Below, piece after piece: positions 1 through 20,000 of a stretch of DNA of 20,000 bases. Source of the DNA: Chiloscyllium plagiosum (taxonomy: Eukaryota); assembly GCF_004010195.1 (NCBI RefSeq), contig NC_057719.1:47798901-47818900 (forward strand), given 5' to 3'. A program made the translations under genes and the position numbers. Below the pieces are notes generated by a model. It had not been told where the DNA came from. It made no database searches and saw only the letters and a list, made by a program, of their open reading frames with translations. Numbering within the stretch: the stretch's first letter is position 1; each line of letters starts with the position of its first letter.

Positions 1-134
1 GCTTTTCATGGGCAGCATCTACTTGGGCTATTATCCACATTGCTGGATACTTTAAATGGAAGTTTGGAAGTATCTAAATTTGTTGGCACTTTAACACAGC
101 AAATAGAAATAAAATTGAATTCAGTAACTGTTGG

Positions 135-826
135 TCATAGAGTCATAGAGATGTACAGCACAGAAACAGACCCTTCGGTACAACCCGTCCATGCTGACCA
201 AATATCCCAACCCAATCTAGTCCCACCTGCCAGCACTCAGTCCATATCCCTCCAAACCATTCCTATTCATATACCCATCCAAATGCCTCTTAAATGTTGC
301 AATTGTACCAGCCTCCACCACTTCCTCTGGCAGCTCATTCCATACATGTACCACCGTCTGTATGAAAAGGTTGCCCCGTAGGTCTTTTTTATCTTTCCCC
401 TCTCGCCCTAAATCTATGCCCTCTAGTTCTAGACTCCCCCACCCCAGGGAAAAGACTTTGTCTATTTATCCTATTCATGCCCCTCATGGGTTTATAAACC
501 TCTATAAGGTCACCCATCAGCCTCCGACGTTCCAGGGACAACAGCCTCAGCCTGTTTAACTTCTCCCTATAGCTCAAATTCTCCAACCCTGGCAATATCC
601 TTGTAAATCTTTTCTGAACGCTTTCAAGTTTCACAACATCTTTCCGATAGGAAGGAGACCAGAATTGCACACAATATTCCAACAGTGGCCTAACCAATGT
701 CCTGTACAGCTGCAACATGACCTCTCGACTCCTGTACTCAATACTCTGACCAATAAAGGAAAGCATACCAAACGCCACCTTCACTATCATATCTACCTGC
801 GACTCCACTTTCAAGGAGCTGTGAAC
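135..826 (-). mobile_element. CR1-clade LINE (HER1-like), 3' portion: C-terminal ORF2 and 3' tail
   Basis: Minus ORF 389..847 has LYRTLVRPLLEYCVQFWSP...LESVQKRFTR...RRRLMGDLIEVYK, the typical CR1 ORF2 C-terminus. The 3' tail repeat (CTCTATGA)n reads tcatagagtcatagag on + at 135-150. Confidence 0.92.
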
Positions 827-1135
827 AAGGATCGGTGCTGGGTCCACTACTTTTTATCATTTGTATAAATGATTTGGATGTGAACATAGCAGGTATAGTT
901 AGTAAATTTGCAGGTGACACCAAAATTGGAGGTGTATTGGACAGCTAAGAAGGTTACCTCAGATTACGACGGGATCTTGATCAGATGGGCCAATGGCTGA
1001 GAAGTGGTACATGGAGTTTAATTAAGATAAATGGAAGGTGCTGCATTTTGGGAAAGCAAATCTTAGCAGGACTTATTCATTTAATGGTAAGATCCTAAGG
1101 AGTGTTGTTGAACAAAGAGACCTTGGAGTGCAGGT
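826..1135 (+). mobile_element. Inverted 5' segment of the same CR1 copy (RT core region)
   Basis: caaggatcggtgctgggtcc (QGSVLG), agtaaatttgcaggtgacaccaaaattgga (SKFAGDTKIG, degenerate FADD) and gaccttggagtgcaggt (DLGVQ). It ends where the minus segment begins (VHSSLKVESQV). Confidence 0.88.
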
Positions 1136-1184
1136 GGTAAACATAGAGTAGTTATGTATGTAAACTTACTTTCATTTTCTCCAG

Positions 1185-1334
1185 GTTCTGATTCTTGGTG
1201 AACCAAACCAATACAAGTTGGCTGCAAACAATCAACATTTGTTGGAGTTCAAACGTCGTTACAAAACTTTGCAAGATGTTACAAAGGTTTCCACCTACGG
1301 TGAAATTGATCTACATGCAATGTTAATGATATAA
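1185..1334 (+). CDS. lgals3: Terminal coding exon of a galectin, most like galectin-3 (C-terminal part of the carbohydrate-recognition domain)
   Basis: Acceptor ttactttcattttctccag|GTT at 1184/1185. Phase-0 translation VLILGEPNQYKLAANNQHLLEFKRRYKTLQDVTKVSTYGEIDLHAMLMI* is colinear with the galectin-3 C-terminus as recalled ([51 protein letters not shown]). Upstream exons lie outside the window; paralog identity is uncertain. Confidence 0.82.
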   Translation, partial: VLILGEPNQYKLAANNQHLLEFKRRYKTLQDVTKVSTYGEIDLHAMLMI

Positions 1335-1616
1335 ACACCAAAAAAATTATTTGAATGTTATCTCCAGCACTTACTGAATATACATACATATATATTTTTC
1401 TGTTCATTATTTTCTATCCAAACTAATGGCTGATTTGGATTGATTAAAAAGCTGTAACATAATTGAGTATTCCGACAGATTCCCAAACTTAGAATGAAGA
1501 CTTTTATTAATTGCATTTACTTTACAATTCTGCTATCATTGAATCTGTCTGAGAAAACCAGAGAGTTATTATAACAGGCCATTCAGACCATTGAGTCTAT
1601 GGGAGTATTTTCCCCA

Positions 1617-1622
1617 AATAAA
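1617..1622 (+). promoter_or_regulatory. Candidate polyadenylation signal for the galectin transcript
   Basis: AATAAA ~280 nt after the stop codon, followed by T/GT-rich sequence. An alternative ATTAAA lies at 1443-1448. Confidence 0.4.
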
Positions 1623-1823
1623 ATGGCTTGCTTTTCCTGCTTCTTGCTTGTTTTATTACTCTTTAATACTCCCCCTTCTCAGACAATATCTAATTGCTTT
1701 CAAAATGACTCAAAGTTTTCTTCATGATTGAGGAAGTCACATTTCACACAGTACTTTTTTTTCCAATCCCTAATTTTCTTGTGTTTGTATTTGACCCTGT
1801 CTGCTCAAGTAATTCAACAGAGA

Positions 1824-2004
1824 CAAAAAAAAACTGTAGATGCTGGAATCCAAAATAGACAGGCAAGCGGCTGGAAGAACACAGAAAGGCAGGCAACATC
1901 AGGAGGTGGAGAAGTCAACGTTGGTTACTCCCAAAATGTTGACTTCTCCACCTCCTGATGCTGTCTATCTTTGTGTGTTCTTCCAGCCTCCTGCCTGTCT
2001 ATCT
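1824..2004. mobile_element. Fold-back pair of PLE terminal-repeat fragments (~68 bp inverted arms)
   Basis: 1855-1922 (atagacaggc...aggaggtggagaagtcaacgtt) is the reverse complement of 1935-2002 (aatgttgacttctccacctcctgatg...gcctgtctat). The same family recurs at 13733-13848. Confidence 0.8.
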
Positions 2005-2280
2005 TAATAATTCATCAACCAATACAACCAATTTGTTTTTACATATCTTTATTGTTAACCCTATAAGACTGTGAACACCTTTTATTAGGCCATTTCATAA
2101 GCTTCTCAACTACAAGGTGTAAAATGCTAAATTCTCAAGAATTATATCTTCATAATTGGAATTGAAACCTAGCATCATTTCAGTGAATTTATGTTGCATA
2201 TCTTCCCTTATTCCCATTTCTTTATATCTTTGCAACTATACACGGTACACCACCTACAGCTTATATATTTATTCATCCAA

Positions 2281-2735
2281 ATCCTCAGATTGGAGCTGGA
2301 GCTGACTCCAAAACAGCTATTCCTTTCTAAAATGTGTGAAGCTTTGTAGCTTTGTGTAGTCCATCATATACCCACTAATCACCCTGACGGATGACCACCT
2401 CCCACCCCACCCCACCCCACCCCCATACACCAAGCACTCTCATTTTTAGGTACCCCACTCACTTCCCCATCTGTCCCATCACTCCCCCCGCTCACTCCCC
2501 AGGGCCTTCGGATGAATCCTTCCTGACATACGGCAGTAAGTACAAGAACAAACGTGTAAGTTTTGGCCTACCAGGTTGCTCCTCTGCTAAGTGGACCCTC
2601 TCCCCAGTTTTCACTGATGCATGCATTTGGGAGTGGCCAGACTCTGAAATTAGCCAGATAAACCATTAAAAGGTAAATGGGTGACAAATAGAGAATTATT
2701 GTCAATCAAACCTGCTCCAACTCTAATCTGAAAAT
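2281..2735. mobile_element. Possible old MITE / non-autonomous DNA transposon
   Basis: Imperfect terminal inverted repeats: 2281-2302 atcctcagattggagctggagc vs reverse complement of 2714-2735 attttcagattagagttggagc (18/22, all mismatches are transitions). Confidence 0.4.
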
Positions 2736-3294
2736 CTGGGCCAATACTGTGATTTAAAATTGAGGAATTGATTATGTGTGTAATTTGACCAAACTTTATA
2801 TTTACTGATGCAATAAATAAAACTGAACAAATTATTTTGTGTGTATGTGTTAGAACCTTTGTAGGAGGATTACACTGTCACTGTAATCTCATGATTGCAT
2901 GGGTCACATTACAAAACAAAAATACTTTATCAAATAATCAAGCTGACCAATGAAATATCTTCTCTGGTTTTAAACAATAAAATCTATTAACCAAATTTCT
3001 TAAACATAATTATTTGTAATAAACCAAACGGAAGTTGTTTAATGAAGGTACAATAATTGGGTAATGTACATAGTTTGTAATACAGTAATTGAAATACATT
3101 TCCCTTCTAAATATTTCCAAAATACAAACAAACCACACACTTTTCAAGGGAAAAAACGTTTTTCCACAGAGACCGGCCCATGTGTTTTTCAGTAAAGCCA
3201 ATGGTTTATCGTCCTTGAAGACAAAAGGATAAAGCAGAGAATATTACAGATCCTGTTGCTGTGATGTTTTGACATATGGCAAAATCACTAATTA

Positions 3295-3385
3295 TGCACT
3301 GAGCTCAACAAGGCTGGTAGTATCTGTGACAAGAGAAAGAAAGTTAATGCTTCAAATCCATAAGACTCAGCTTTATAGCTGAGAA
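3295..3385 (-). mobile_element. Old, degenerate PLE terminal-repeat fragment
   Basis: gagctcaacaaggctggtagtatctgtg...gaaagttaatgcttcaaatcca resembles the reverse complement of the pLTR at 13649-13732. Confidence 0.4.
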
Positions 3386-3429
3386 TTGACTGTCCACAGT
3401 ATCCATTGCCTTCAGTTGTATTTTGATAT

Positions 3430-4610
3430 CACATGGAGTGAATTGAATGGGCTCAAGACTGGGCATCTGTCATGCTGGAGGAGGCTAAGGTGTTGCAAAT
3501 ACTTCAGCCTCATCATTTGCAGTGATGCTTTGGATGCTTCCATCATTGAGAATGTGGATATTTGTGGAGCATCTTCCAATGAGTTGTTTAATTGTCCAAA
3601 ACCATTCATTAGAGAATATGGCAGAACTATAGCTCTTATATCTGACATATTCATTGTGAAATCCCTTAGTTCTATTTAATATTTGCTGCTTATGCTCTCT
3701 GGTATGCACATAGTCCTGCTTTGTAGCTTTACAGTAATCCCTCCTGCACTTTTCAATGAACCAGTGTTGATCCTGTGGCTTGATCATAATGATGGAATGG
3801 GGGATTTGTGGGGCTATAAGTTTGCAGATTGTGTTGAGTATGCTGCTGTTGTTGATGACTCACAGCATCTCATGGATGCCTAATCTTGAGTTGCTCGATT
3901 TCTTCTGAATTTGTCTAATTTAGCATAGTGGAGGGTATGCTCAATGTGAAGGAATGACTGTTTCCACGAAAACTATGTAGCGGTTACTCTTACCAGTACT
4001 TTCATGGACAGATGCATCTGCAGCTGGCAGATTGGTGAGGGTGAGGTTAAGGATGTCTAACCCTCTTGTTGATTCCTTCACCTCCTGCCGACCAGTCTAG
4101 CAGCTGTGTCCTCTAGGATTTGACAAGTTCAATCGGTAGTGCTGCTGGTGGCGGACATTGAAGTACCCCACCTAGAGTACATTCTGCGTCCTTGCCATCT
4201 CCTCTGTTTTTCCTGTAGATAGTAGTCAACATGAAGCAATACTGATTCATCACCCAAGGGAAGACACTGCATGGTAACAGCAGGAGATTTTCTTGCCCGT
4301 GTTTGACTTGATGGTCTGAATCAATCACAGGGTAACGTCTCTCTATCTTTTGTGCTACTACTGCTGGGTCTGTCCTGCTGTTTGGAAGGGCTGGCAGTAT
4401 TGGTATCTGAGACATTGTAAGGTATGATTCCATTGGTATGACTGTGTCTTACCCTTACGTGATGAGTCTATGAGAAACAGCTCTCTCAAAACTTGGTACA
4501 ACCACCCCCTACCCTCCAAAAGCATTGGTAAGGAAGACTTTACAGGATCAGCAGGGCTGAATTTACAGTTGCTGTTCCTGGTACCTTGGTTGATGCCAAG
4601 TGGTCCACCG
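3430..4610 (-). mobile_element. Degenerate CR1/L2-group LINE, AP-endonuclease region of ORF2
   Basis: Minus-strand remnants HQVKHGQENLLL and LTTIYR. The ggacattgaagtacccca segment reads as G(D/Y)FNV on minus. Many frameshifts. Confidence 0.6.
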
Positions 4611-4699
4611 AAATACTTTTTAACAGTTGGGTGAAATTGAAAGGCTTATTAGATCATCTGAGAGTCAACCAGTCAATATCAATAGGTGGGTTTTCACGG

Positions 4700-14559: not shown

Positions 14560-14900
14560 TTTTCAGCTGCTCTAAAACTGATATCTCATATTTTCTCTCC
14601 ACATTATTCTTATCAAATAGTGGCAACTTATTTTTCTGTAATGAATTTCATCAAGCATTTGTCAGCTCAGTCCACTAGCCTGTTTATTATTCTCGAAGTT
14701 TATTGCTATTTTCCTCACTGTTTACAGTGCTACCAAGTTACTTGTTAGCTGGAAATTCCGAAGTCCTACTGCTATTCAGAAGGCTAAGTCCAAGAAATCT
14801 GTAATAAAAATAGCAGTGACCTTCATCCCTTGGAATTCCACAATTCCTCCAATCCAAAAAACCGATGCTCCTCATTTATCCATTCTTGTTTCTAAACACT
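14560..14900 (-). mobile_element. Very old CR1/L2-like RT remnant
   Basis: Weak similarity to the antisense FADD/QGS region (ccaagttacttgttagctggaaatt...ccttggaattccac). Confidence 0.3.
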
Positions 14901-14925
14901 AATTGGCCATCAATGTTAAACTTTC

Positions 14926-15202
14926 AGAAAATGAGGACTGCACGTACTGGAGATCAGAAACAAAATGTGTGGTGCTGGAAAAAGCACAGCAATCAAGCAG
15001 CATCCAAGGAGCAGGAGAGTCGACGCTTCAGGCATAAGCCCTTCATCGGTTTGATCTGGGATCAGGTTGGGGGGGGGAGGGAGATGAGGAAACTGGTAAA
15101 ACTGACATTGATGCAATGTTGGAGGGTCCCCAGGCAGGTGAGGCATTCTTCCTCCGGACATCAGGTGGCTTGGATTTGGTGGTGGTGGAGGCCCAGGACT
15201 TT
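14926..15202 (-). mobile_element. PLE fragment: GIY-YIG C-terminal remnant and pLTR with decayed hammerhead
   Basis: Minus strand VLGLHHHQIQAT*CPEEECLTCLGTLQHCINVSFTSF parallels 12262-12380. 15016-15050 minus reads CCGAUGA-A-GGGC-UUAU-GCCU-GAAGC-GUC. Confidence 0.78.
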
Positions 15203-15618
15203 TATCGCACTCACTATCTGAATGGATTCTGTTCATTTCGAGTTTTTTCTCGTCGCTCGTCGACATAAAAGACACCCCTATCTAGCTAACCACAGCCAGA
15301 TGATGTTAAGGGAATGGAAATATTCACTGTAAAGCAGAGACCAAGTGAGGATTGAGCTAGGATTATTCAACTGACAGGTTAGTTACCTCCTTAGCTCATC
15401 ACCTGTTGTGTTGGCAAGTGCAGTTTTAATTCTATCCACCCTAACGACCCTCCACCATTACTGTGAGCTAAAAAACAAAAATCCTTTATTACTAAAATTA
15501 TTATAAAATTTAAAATTCTAAAATAAGTTAAAATTCTACCTAAAATTAACATTACTTAAACAATCAATTTAAAAATTAATTCAATTATGTCCAAAATAGA
15601 GAAGCTTAAAAGAGTCCA

Positions 15619-16200
15619 TTATGAATCCAAAGAAATTCTTAGCAACTCAAGGGTCAGGGATATAACCAGGTTTGTAATGTGTTGAGCAAATGTCTTACAC
15701 TTTTCGATCCAGAGATCTTTCATCACGTCAGTGTTCTTTTGAACCATTTACCTCGGGACAAATCCATAAAAAGAAACATTGGTTCCTTTAATAGAATCCA
15801 TGATTTCTTTCTCTAAATGTTTATATTTCTCCACCTTCTCCTCCCAAGCTTGCTCTAGCGAATTTTCTTGGTTTTCCACCGAATTGTGACATCAACAACA
15901 ATAATATGACTGTCTTTCTTAAATCTAATATCTGGGATCCAGAGCTTTACATATCCTTTATATGAGGTTCAATATATGTGGTCCATCCTTTAGTTTTAAC
16001 ATATTTAACATATTTAATTAGTTCCTCAGCAATCCTGTTGTGTCTTTTCATGTGCATATTTTTCACATACGGGCACCAGCCCGATGTGCGCGCGACTGTC
16101 TTGATGGCATCATTGCATCCCCTACAATTCTTGGTGTTAAAGGGCCTTCCATATGATAACGATGATCTAGTTGGGTACAAGTTTGTTCGTATTTTTACTT
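15619..16200 (-). pseudogene. R2 ORF C-terminus: CCHC zinc knuckle and PD-(D/E)xK restriction-like endonuclease (frameshifted)
   Basis: ORF 15947..16180 YPTRSSL...CRGCNDAIKTVARTSGWCP...KRHNRIAEEL...EPHIKD. After frameshifts: LWIPDIRFKKDSHIIVVDVTIR, LEQAWEEKVEKYKHLEKE, GKWFKKN and LLRISLDS*. Confidence 0.85.
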
Positions 16201-16783
16201 TTCATGTTTTCATATAATGCATCTTATTTAACCAATTATTAGAGATTTTATCATTTTTAAAATAGTGAATGCCTGCCCCCTTGCTAGGCAGAGCCATCCA
16301 TTTTTGCAATTCCACATTTCTCCATTTCGAATAATTTTTACTGCAATCCTCTTCAATCCCCTCGATATCCTCATTCTCACCATCTTCACTTTTCCTTCTA
16401 ATTGGCTATTACAGAATGGATTCCAAATTTCGTCAAAATTTTCAAAGTGCTCAATTCCTTCATCTTCGTTGTTACACTAATCCCATCGAATTTAAATGAG
16501 GCATGAAGGATTTCGTCAGAAGAGGTAAGCAGCAATTCATTTTTCCTTAATACCGCAATCGGAATAGCATTGATAGCTTATTCAAACCGAGGCTGCTGTC
16601 GCAGCTCCGGGCATATAACATCCCATCTGCAACTGATTGTGGGGGGTGCAAAATTTCTTTCACTGACCCTTTAATTAAACAATCTAATTTATTTAAATAA
16701 TTCTGTGATACTTCAGATAATAATAAATCCTAGGGATAAAATAGGATTTTAATAATTCTATATTCTGCACTGGATTTAATAGT

Positions 16784-17096
16784 GGGCAGCACGGTGGCAC
16801 AGTGGGTTAGCACTGCTGCCTCACAGCACCAGAGTCACAGGTTCAATTCCCGCCTCAGGTGACTGACTGCGTGGAGTTTGCACATTCTCCCAGTGTCTGC
16901 GTGGATTTCCTCCGGGTGCTCCGGTTTCCTCCCACAGTCCAAAGATGTGCAGGTTAGGTGAATTGGCCACGCTAAATTGCCTGTAGTGGGGTAAATGTAG
17001 GGGAATGGGGCTGGGTGGGTTGCGCTCCGGTGGGTCGGCGTGGACTTGTTGGGCCGAAGGGCCTGTTTCCACACTAAGTAATCTAATCTAATCTAA
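16784..17096 (+). mobile_element. HE1-type tRNA-derived SINE inserted in R2
   Basis: A box tggcacagtgg, B box ggttcaattccc, V-like core and (TAATC)n tail. Probable TSD taatag. Confidence 0.92.
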
Positions 17097-17277
17097 TAGC
17101 GAACTCCAAGTTCTTGATCCATTCTCCTAATTGATCTTCCCAGTGTAATAAACTAATTCCAACCCCGGGATCTATTCTTGCTCCTAAATATTTTTCCACA
17201 TTCCCCGGCTCTATATACTGAATATCCTTTTTATTAAGTTTACAATTGGCCCTATTGTTGTCGATAAACATTTTATT

Positions 17278-18076
17278 CAGAGTCATAGAGATGTACAGCA
17301 TGGAAATAGACCCTTCAATCCAACCCGTCCATGCCGACCAGATATCCCAATCCAATCTAATCCCACCTGCCAGCATCCAGCCCATATCCCTCCAAACCCT
17401 TCCTATTCAAATACCCATCCAAATGCCTCTTAAATGTTGCAATTGTACCAGCCTTCACCACACCCTCTGGCAGCTCATTCCATACACGTACCACCCTCTG
17501 CGTGAAAAAGTTGTCCCTTATGTCTCTTTTATATCTATCCCCTCTCACCCTAAACCTATGCCCTCTAGTTCTGGACTCCCCGACCCCAGGGAAAAGACTT
17601 TGTCTATTTATCCAATCCATGCCCCTCATCATTTTGTAAATCTCTATAAGGTCACCCCTCAGCATCCGACGCTTCAGGGAAAACAGCCTCAGCCTGTTCA
17701 GCCTCTCCCTGTAGCTCAGATCCTACAACCCTGGCAACATCCTTGTAAATCTGTTCTGAACCCTTTCAAGTTTCAGAACATCTTTCCAATAGGAAGGAGA
17801 CCAGAATTGCATGCGAATTAAACTCCATCTGCCACTTCTCAGCCCATTGGCTCATCTGGTTCAGATTCTGTTGTAATCGGAGGTAACCCTCTTCGCTGTC
17901 CACTACACCTCCAATTTTGGTGTCATCTGCAAACTTACTAACTGTACCTCTTGTGCTCGCATCCAAATCATTTATGTAAATGACAAAAAGTAGAGGGCCA
18001 GCACCGATCCTTGTGGCACTCCACTGGTCACAGGCCTCCAGTCTGAAAAACAACCCTCCACCACCACCTTCTGTCT
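17278..18076 (-). mobile_element. CR1 LINE (HER1-like) inserted in the R2 RT, with an internal deletion near 17815
   Basis: Closely similar to 135-670 over 17278-17814. It then jumps to MEFN and SKFADDTKIGG (ORF 17766..18110). Confidence 0.92.
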
Positions 18077-19003
18077 TTTCTAATGTTAACCTCCAACCCC
18101 GTACTTTCACAAAATTGCTGTACTAGTTTTAAATTGTATTCTATGCCCTCGTAAGATTGACTTACTAAATCAATATCATGTGCAAAGGTGAGGGAGGCAC
18201 AGTGAAAATCATCACCCCTGGGACTCAAAAAATCCCTCTTTTACCCTCTTCTAACATAGTGACGACAGGGTCCATTACAATGTTAAAAAGAATAGGGGAT
18301 AAAGAGTCGTCTTGTTTGACTCCTTTTAAACTTTTTATCAAATTTGTCTTACAATTAAAACCTTCCACTAACGTATTATCATAATATAAATTTGCTATTA
18401 ATTTAATGAATTCTGGTGGAGCAATAATCTGTTCATGGCTTTAATAATCAGTTTATGACCCACTGTGTCAAAGGCCTTTGCCAGGTCCACGAACACTATC
18501 ACTAGTTGCTGCTTTTTCTTTTGGCCCCATCGATAATGTTTGTGAGGATTTTAATATTCTCCTCACAGCCTGTGACCCCAGTGAGAAAATCTTTTTGACG
18601 TTTATTTAACCTTTTAGCAATGATTTTAGTAAATAGCAGTAATAAAATAGGGCCTATTGTTATTGGTCTCCAATTTTCAATATCTTTTAGTTCTTCTTCA
18701 TCATTAGTTTTCAGAATTAGTACTGCCCTGCTCGTTTTCAGTGAATCTGGGATATTGCCAGTTTTTAGCCAAATTGAAAAAATTCTTGGGATTAAAGTAT
18801 TGTCTTTATTGAATATTTTAATTATATCTTTCACTGACATCTCATCAGGTCCTGCAGCAGATTTAACGTCAGTCACCTTAATGGCCTGAATGATGCCTTC
18901 TACTGTTATTGGCCCAATTAACATATTACTTAAGGAATTGTCTAGTCCACCCTTATATTTCACAAAAGTTCTTAAATTACACTTTTCAGTTGCAACTATT
19001 AGT
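18077..19003 (-). pseudogene. R2 reverse transcriptase domains 0-5 (frameshifted, catalytic FADD changed to FAHD)
   Basis: ORFs 18502..19203 (non-SINE part) and 18028..18228, plus intervening frames VDLAKAFDTVGH and GVKQDDSLSPILFNIVMDP. Confidence 0.88.
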
Positions 19004-19310
19004 GGGCAGCACGGTGGCACAGTGGTTAGCACTGTTGCCTCACAGCGCCAGAGACCCGGGTTCAATTCCCGACTCAGGCGACTGACTGTGTGGAGTTTGC
19101 ACATTCTCCCCGTGTCTGCGTGGGTTTCCTCCGGGTGCTCCGGTTTCCTCCCACAGTCCAAAGATGTGCAGGTCAGGTGAATTGGCCATGCTAAATTGCC
19201 CATAGTGTTAGGTTAAAAGGGGTAAATGTGGGGGTATGGGTGGGTTGCGGGTCGGTGTGGACTTGTTGGGCCGAAGGGCCTGTTTCCACACTGTAAGTAA
19301 TCTAATCTAA
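19004..19310 (+). mobile_element. HE1-type tRNA-derived SINE inserted in R2
   Basis: gggcagcacggtggcacagtggttagc (A box), gggttcaattccc (B box), V-like core and tail gtaatctaatctaa. Confidence 0.93.
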
Positions 19311-19484
19311 TTTACCACTAAAATATTATTCTAAATCTTCTTTAGTCAACGGACAAATACATTTCGTTAGAGCCCCCATTAATGATCTAGCAAGATATTG
19401 CCTTTTAAATTTATACATCATTTGCATTTCTTTAAATTGATCTTTTTTCCTACAGTATTTCTTTCTTGCATTACTTAAAAATGC

Positions 19485-20000
19485 TCAATTTTAGCCTTCT
19501 CAAAATTGATGGCTTTTGATGCCCGTCATATAATTATAGGGGGAGACTTTAATTGTATTATGGATCCGGAAATAGACAGGATTCCCAAGAGTACTGCAGG
19601 AGTATCTCCCAGATCTAGACAATTGATGGATCTGAACAAAGAATTAGGATTAGTAGATGTATGATGTCTTCATCCACAGGGTAGAGATTTCTCTTTCTAC
19701 TCTAATCCACATAAATGTCAAACCAGAATTGATATGTTTTTTGCCCCCTCAATTTTTTAAAATTCCATATCATCCTGTAAAATAGGTAATATAGCAATTT
19801 CTGACCACCCTGCTGTATATATGGAAACTAAGGCGAGGAACAGTGGGACATCCCCTCGGCATTGGCGTATGGACCCCTTCCTAATGAAAGATAGTAAATT
19901 TGTAAAGTACTTCTCTCAAGAATTTAAAACTTTTTTAGAAATTAATTCAGGTACAGCTAGCAACCCGTCAATGATGTGGGAGACCAGCAAAGCTTACACG
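19485..20000 (+). mobile_element. L1-clade LINE ORF2, AP-endonuclease C-terminal half (degenerate, runs off the window)
   Basis: GDFNCIMDPEIDR, LGLVDV*, RDFSFYSNPHKCQTRIDMFF, AISDHPAV, WRMDPFLMKD and MWETSKAY are L1 EN/linker motifs. Confidence 0.85.

Follow-up and report, generated by a model that had tools for sequence, protein, structure and literature searches.

R2 retrotransposons normally insert in ribosomal RNA genes only, and the R2-like remains in the 20-kb stretch of Chiloscyllium plagiosum DNA analysed here (the window) raise the question of how an element of this type came to lie elsewhere. The original prediction offered two readings, a lineage whose specificity had been lost or changed and a one-off ectopic insertion. 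We found that the case fitting the data lies between them: retained 28S targeting with frequent near-cognate misses. The window copy is a non-rDNA, full-length lineage-A R2 that was probably inserted by TPRT after a 28S-targeting R2 protein had nicked a site resembling its target.

A dead R2 copy and its nested inserts

Four collinear retrotransposon ORF pieces and a 3′ UTR occupy the minus strand at 15202-19493, interrupted by two SINEs and a CR1. The pieces carry RT, CCHC and RLE in R2 order, with the motifs WRPITIG, RTNLYPTR, KRHN, EPHI and EKVEKYKHLE, and here the predicted R2-type identity was borne out: all of the named motifs lie on the minus strand, and the RT piece matched solved R2 proteins at E ~1e-25, compared with ~1e-3 for L1. 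Read from its 3′ end on the minus strand, the element consists of a 3′ UTR with the same terminal base as its 28S-linked relatives (15202..15618), ORF remains with the thumb/linker, the CCHC knuckle (RTNLYPTR..C..C, KRHN) and the RLE (PD..D, EKVEKYKHLE; 15619..16783), the end of the RT with its KYLG motif (17094..17277), the RT core (WRPITIG, DLAKAFD, GVKQ and a decayed FADD; 18076..19003) and ORF remains upstream of the RT (19313..19493). The 3′ UTR had been placed at 15203-15470; it actually starts at the stop codon at 15621-15619 and is ~417 nt long, and the true 3′ terminal base is 15202 rather than 15203.

Between these pieces lie SINE 2 (16784..17093, plus strand), which has a 6-bp direct repeat at its ends and presumably a tRNA-type head, a 5′-truncated CR1-type LINE with an RT fragment (17278..18075, minus strand) and SINE 1 (19004..19312, plus strand). 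These three had been recognized as younger insertions, and an L1-type insert that extends past the window (19494..20000, plus strand) makes four. The L1 is bracketed by a 17-bp direct repeat, one copy of which lies within the ORF remains upstream of the RT (19477-19493) and the other ~4 kb further on, and it is therefore a nested insert rather than the 5′ flank for which it had been taken. The flank reading is also ruled out by the R2 itself, which resumes past the L1 with a Myb-like stretch, three decayed zinc fingers and a 5′ UTR. This 5′ quarter of the element, ~5 kb past the window in the neighbouring stretch L126, spans L126:3461-4988 on the minus strand (Myb, ZnF1-3 and the 5′ UTR with a predicted ribozyme) and ends at L126:4988, which corresponds to C10:47823888. 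The L1 stretch contains an N run of ~3 kb; we joined the R2 across it because both parts lie on the same scaffold, the 17-bp repeat is present on both sides and the profile positions are collinear (1652, then 1734).

On a profile of 14 natural copies (4666 positions), the window copy aligned to positions 1-4665 in six pieces, and its ORF remains contain several stops and frameshifts. The window copy is a dead, originally full-length minus-strand R2 of lineage A (three zinc fingers). The domain order ZnF and Myb, RT, CCHC and RLE is present as decayed remains across the window and L126 and is intact in the relative L052, which matched the structures 9dou at E 6e-187 and 8gh6 at 1e-65, and L1 at 1e-29. 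Three Cys/His motifs precede the Myb in L052 and L053 (identified by eye, with weak Pfam support), and these have decayed counterparts in L126. Lineage-A vertebrate R2 (R2Tg, PDB 9dou and 9nl3; chain 9nl2) has the same three N-terminal zinc fingers, Myb, RT, CCHC and RLE; the window copy differs from it in being dead and outside 28S. No Pfam domain was detected in the window's own R2 fragments and no Rfam match at the junctions of the copy, and its identity as R2 rests on domain order, family target and the predicted ribozyme. Utopia and NeSL elements have a U2 snRNA or spliced-leader target, whereas the target of this family is 28S. The 5′ part in L126 also contains a Myb-like stretch, and a Myb domain is what Utopia and NeSL lack according to the accessible part of PMC13188248.

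Family members at 28S and elsewhere in the genome

We searched the 3.56-Gb assembly, in which the window is C10:47798901-47818900, for relatives and obtained 44 matches for the 3′ UTR (from 40 scored of 871 candidates), 150 scored matches for the RT and 62 for an exact 3′ motif, compared with 1 for its control. We retrieved 79 loci of relatives, each of at most 10 kb, in addition to L126, giving preference to loci with long open frames or an intact 3′ end. After removal of L068, which had no profile match, 78 relatives and the window copy formed 79 rows, a non-random sample in which the junction classes and the TAG figures given below are hand counts. The 3′ end was kept in 62 of the 79 rows. 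Past it, 28S follows at the canonical site in 20 (18 by pattern, plus L058, where the contig ends, and L130, which has a small deletion), and the remaining 42 non-28S ends reduce to 37 independent insertions once five duplicates of one event are removed. The comparison of 3′ junctions, which had been suggested as a check, does not describe a non-specific family of the R2NS kind, in which no copies lie at 28S. Nor, with 37 independent non-28S insertions in the sample, is the window copy a one-off.

The 5′ end was kept in 32 of the 79 rows, with 28S upstream in 5 and non-28S sequence in 27. L057, L064, L066, L147 and L161 have 28S on both sides, L057 being a canonical insertion within a 28S gene that matches at 99.5%. 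Many 28S-linked copies lie on pieces of rDNA that were relocated and that end at scattered positions; L064, L147, L152, L155 and L160 extend past the 28S 3′ end. The idea that the dispersed copies joined to 28S are processed RNA copies ending at the mature 28S end found no support, as their ends are scattered and several lie beyond that point. The assembly contains four exact matches to the uninserted 28S target, and because rDNA is poorly assembled, a ratio of on-target to off-target insertion cannot be derived from these counts. Two of the four uninserted targets (L092:1-1540 and L093:1-1540) are dispersed 28S fragments with a 5′ boundary 9-14 nt upstream of the nick site, boundaries that may have arisen when DNA broke or was copied there.

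Some rows are closely related copies. One stray insertion is present six times (L143, L145, L150, L163, L164 and L165). The six copies, 87-97% alike, each include kilobases of flank on either side. Transduction out of a stray, as a shared non-28S 3′ tail might suggest, was rejected for these six because both flanks are common for kilobases, as expected of one insertion that was duplicated. L069, L065 and L055 form a 98-99% identical group in which two of the three lack a 3′ end. Separately, L158 is a young stray that is 93-97% identical to the rDNA copy L057; it has both ends and, at ~0.9 kb, is an internally deleted form. Five unplaced contigs (L019:839-864, L029:887-912, L169:651-676, L171:2003-2028 and L173:799-824) have a head-to-tail R2-R2 junction in common, in which a 3′ end is followed by a brief duplication of the 5′ start and then by a complete 5′ end. 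Such a junction suggests either that a tandem array was amplified or that an R2 was inserted at the upstream half-site which an earlier one had left.

In a tree built with FastTree from 75 of the 79 rows (L135, L149, L158 and L164 were too short) and rooted on the divergent L062, the window copy is sister to L127 and L128, both of which continue into 28S at the canonical site. L127 is 90.2% identical to the window copy over 1206 nt and L128 85.5% over 919 nt. Six supported clades contain both 28S-linked and stray copies. With its nearest relatives and members of six clades joined to the canonical 28S site, a lineage of lost or changed specificity is not what we observed. Clades with strays or end-less copies alone also occur (L077/L140/L076/L139/L070; L132/L078/L074; L141/L131; the L069 group). 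Several clades composed of strays only are what one would expect if some sublineages were non-specific or independent of rDNA, with a stray in another transcript, excised by its self-contained ribozyme and loosely targeted, seeding further strays while sister clades stay at 28S. That alternative would also accommodate the 27 of 32 5′-complete copies with non-28S upstream flanks, the strays L052, L053 and L054, which lie on chromosome-scale contigs and have open frames of 1196, 1130 and 1062 aa (none of which reaches the usual C-terminal end in frame), and a predicted ribozyme that requires no 28S bases. However, the clade of the window copy is 28S-linked, and we found no independent strays with a common non-28S 3′ tail, bar one segmental-duplication group and one repeat hot spot. 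A clade without 28S members is in any case expected, because rDNA turns over and is under-assembled.

Selection bears on the same alternative. Between seven subfamilies, dN/dS was 0.04-0.11 where dS was unsaturated (685 codons). Private changes in 27 strays gave a dN/dS of 0.30-0.44, and these strays contain 37 stops, compared with 31-40 expected under neutral amino-acid change; eight 28S-linked copies contain 3 stops, compared with 7-9 expected. Four duplicate rows were excluded from the test, as were copies, the window copy among them, with fewer than two neighbours within 16%. The dN/dS values and stop counts indicate that coding sequence is selected in source lineages and that strays decay. 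Counting against near-cognate insertion by 28S-targeting lineages, the stray dN/dS lies below 1; this fits evolution in an unsampled source lineage, wherever that source lay. The accumulation of stops in strays at a neutral rate argues against strays that seed further strays, and we consider rDNA-independent sublineages unlikely.

Junctions, target likeness and a predicted ribozyme

Both true ends of the window copy lack any 28S base, and the copy stops at the element's own termini. We found no 28S or other rRNA match in the 20-kb window or the next 10 kb, and the 28S target 12-mer occurred at chance level (2 matches with 2 mismatches, compared with 1.84 expected). The prediction that the copy sits outside rDNA, with no 28S target sequence at its junctions, therefore stands, and it holds at both true ends too. 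The 3′ flank begins AAGTCC, without TAG. It is formed by a 276-bp fragment of a high-copy repeat that abuts the R2 3′ end, starting at 15201 (14926..15201, minus strand), and that we take from its motifs to be PLE-type; past this fragment lies decayed CR1-like sequence (14770..14925, minus strand), for which the alignment suggests CR1. At the true 5′ end, the flank consists of decayed CR1 RT sequence, which a looser nhmmer run detected (E 4e-4); tblastn and an initial nhmmer search gave no CR1 match in either flank. As a counterpoint to insertion at a look-alike site, the two flanks are different repeats, which makes any reconstruction of the pre-insertion site uncertain. One 6-mer, AGTTTA, is present at 14917-14922, just past the 3′ repeat fragment, and at L126:4990-4995, at the end of the 5′ flank. 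This pair, a weak match at six bases, could be the duplication of the 3′ repeat fragment, which would make the fragment older than the R2.

One contig of run X2, which may be the source sample, bridges the 3′ junction with 35 nt on the short side, and one contig of run X1 nearly spans it (29 nt). The bridging X2 contig opposes an assembly artefact at this junction. In the data of organism B (X16), the flanking repeat alone was represented, and RNA run X24, of which ~6% was read, gave 0 reads on the window stretch.

The lack of 28S would be secondary if the copy had been inserted in a 28S gene, moved as part of an rDNA fragment and later lost both 28S flanks. Relocated rDNA pieces with R2 are indeed common in this genome, as seen in the five copies that extend past the 28S 3′ end, and L127 and L128 are of the same kind. 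However, both ends of the window copy lie at the element's own termini without 28S, two independent end-exact deletions are unlikely, and the same terminus-exact, 28S-free pattern was found in 25 copies. We regard such a relocation as very improbable.

Sites of stray insertion resemble the 28S target in part. TAG follows the element end (5-8 nt past the terminal motif), as it does at the target, in 22 of the 37 independent strays, with a rough chance expectation of ~6%; 9 of the 15 that lack it begin TAA or TAT. The upstream flanks of 19 stray full-length copies matched 28S −25..−19 at 4.0 of 7 positions, compared with 3.27 in flank controls, and none of 2000 control sets reached the stray score. 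The motif had been fixed in advance on the basis of off-target sites of R2Tg (PMC12222951), the test takes the best of seven offsets, and the set includes two copies in the same repeat. The window copy matches at 5 of 7 positions. In human cells, off-target sites of R2Tg resemble 28S at −25..−19 and at 4-5 downstream bases, according to the accessible part of the same report.

Recurrent sites could instead point to a second preferred target of the family, for which a motif within CR1 or some other repeat would serve, and not to general leakiness. L052, L070, L074 and L076, which belong to different subfamilies, are inserted in one repeat beside the same 28S-like motif; L070 and L076 are 91% alike in their R2 and 78% in their flank. 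Additionally, the CR1 'NYRPVSL' region is close to the insertion sites of both the window copy and L141, and L067, L080 and L090 lie in a CR1 3′ region. By contrast, the flanks of most strays are unrelated to one another, and the recurrent sites are 28S-like, as leakiness predicts in a repeat-rich genome. Of the readings considered here, we rate a second target as the least probable.

An HDV-like double pseudoknot can be drawn for the 5′ ends of 14 full-length copies, with 92.6% of 567 cells paired in the predicted fold, compared with 25-44% in slid controls. The model follows the HDV layout. It contains 15 double-sided changes, mainly in the two side helices, and the core helices hardly vary. 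The window copy has a T at the position that we take, from the HDV layout, to be that of the catalytic C. The predicted P1 begins at the element's own G-run, and the cut RNA would therefore carry no 28S leader. Even at 28S the 5′ junctions are variable (L057, L064, L066, L147 and L161), and the accessible part of PMC3774820 ties ribozyme cleavage at the element's own end to variable 5′ junctions. We infer that own-end cleavage favours complete stray insertions.

Insertion at look-alike sites by a 28S-targeting protein, our preferred reading, could proceed as follows. An R2 in an rDNA unit would be co-transcribed with the rRNA precursor, and the self-contained HDV-like ribozyme predicted at the element's first G would free its RNA without a 28S leader. 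The protein would bind a short upstream motif (28S −25 to −19) and prime on a few bases such as TAG. Most insertions would reach 28S and turn over, and a fraction would land elsewhere. Strays, being without a Pol I promoter, would decay at a neutral rate and survive as fossils of one R2 subfamily after another.

Relation to known R2 elements

The chondrichthyan R2s in the accessible part of PMC13188248, which are many and were chosen by their 28S flanks, resemble the window family in that the latter has members at the canonical 28S site. The same source describes non-site-specific sponge homologues, and the available text of PMC5035012 describes an angel-shark R2, two non-specific flatworm R2 families and a family in the oyster of which one copy out of two lies at 28S. 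R2NS-1_SMed and R2NS-1_CSi (PMC5035012) and the Porifera homologues (PMC13188248) share with the window family an R2-type protein and unrelated flanks, but as far as these partial sources go they are described as not at 28S, whereas 20 of the 62 3′ ends examined here enter it. A closer parallel than R2NS is R2-1_CGi, which, in the same portion of PMC5035012, was renamed since one of its two copies lies at 28S.

In insects, the non-rDNA R2 copies of Drosophila (PMC2718515) and the non-28S insertion of Bombyx (PMC10499050) are, in the parts of these reports that are accessible, likewise strays of a 28S-targeting element at partly target-like sites. The former were found seldom, often incomplete, in five Drosophila species, and the latter are termed rare; divergence among insect strays is given as 1-2%. 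Unlike these, the strays described here comprise at least 37 independent insertions, many of them full-length, in subfamilies with saturated synonymous divergence. A literature search, mostly without subscription papers, found no report of abundant stray R2 in a vertebrate, and the accessible part of PMC13580325 contained nothing on stray R2.

R2 is prized for gene insertion on account of its supposedly near-perfect 28S specificity. Dozens of natural germline misses provide an in vivo off-target set, and this set agrees with the engineered R2Tg logo (−25..−19 and a few downstream bases). The strays also preserve a fossil series of R2 subfamilies that rDNA turnover otherwise erases. The window copy is an ordinary old member of the stray set, and its significance lies in that set across the genome.

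Known R2 ribozymes differ in where they would cut. Drosophila R2 resembles the window family in having cleavage at its own 5′ end together with variable 5′ junctions, whereas for the zebra finch R2 cleavage in upstream 28S has been suggested (both from the accessible part of PMC3774820); the predicted P1 of the window family lies inside the element. We also observed a second, more distant R2-like family with ~50% amino acid identity to the window RT (L068:2305-2332, L062, L056 and L161 beyond its 28S tail). Its member L068 matches 28S −28..−1 outside rDNA, the form expected from ribozyme cleavage in upstream 28S.
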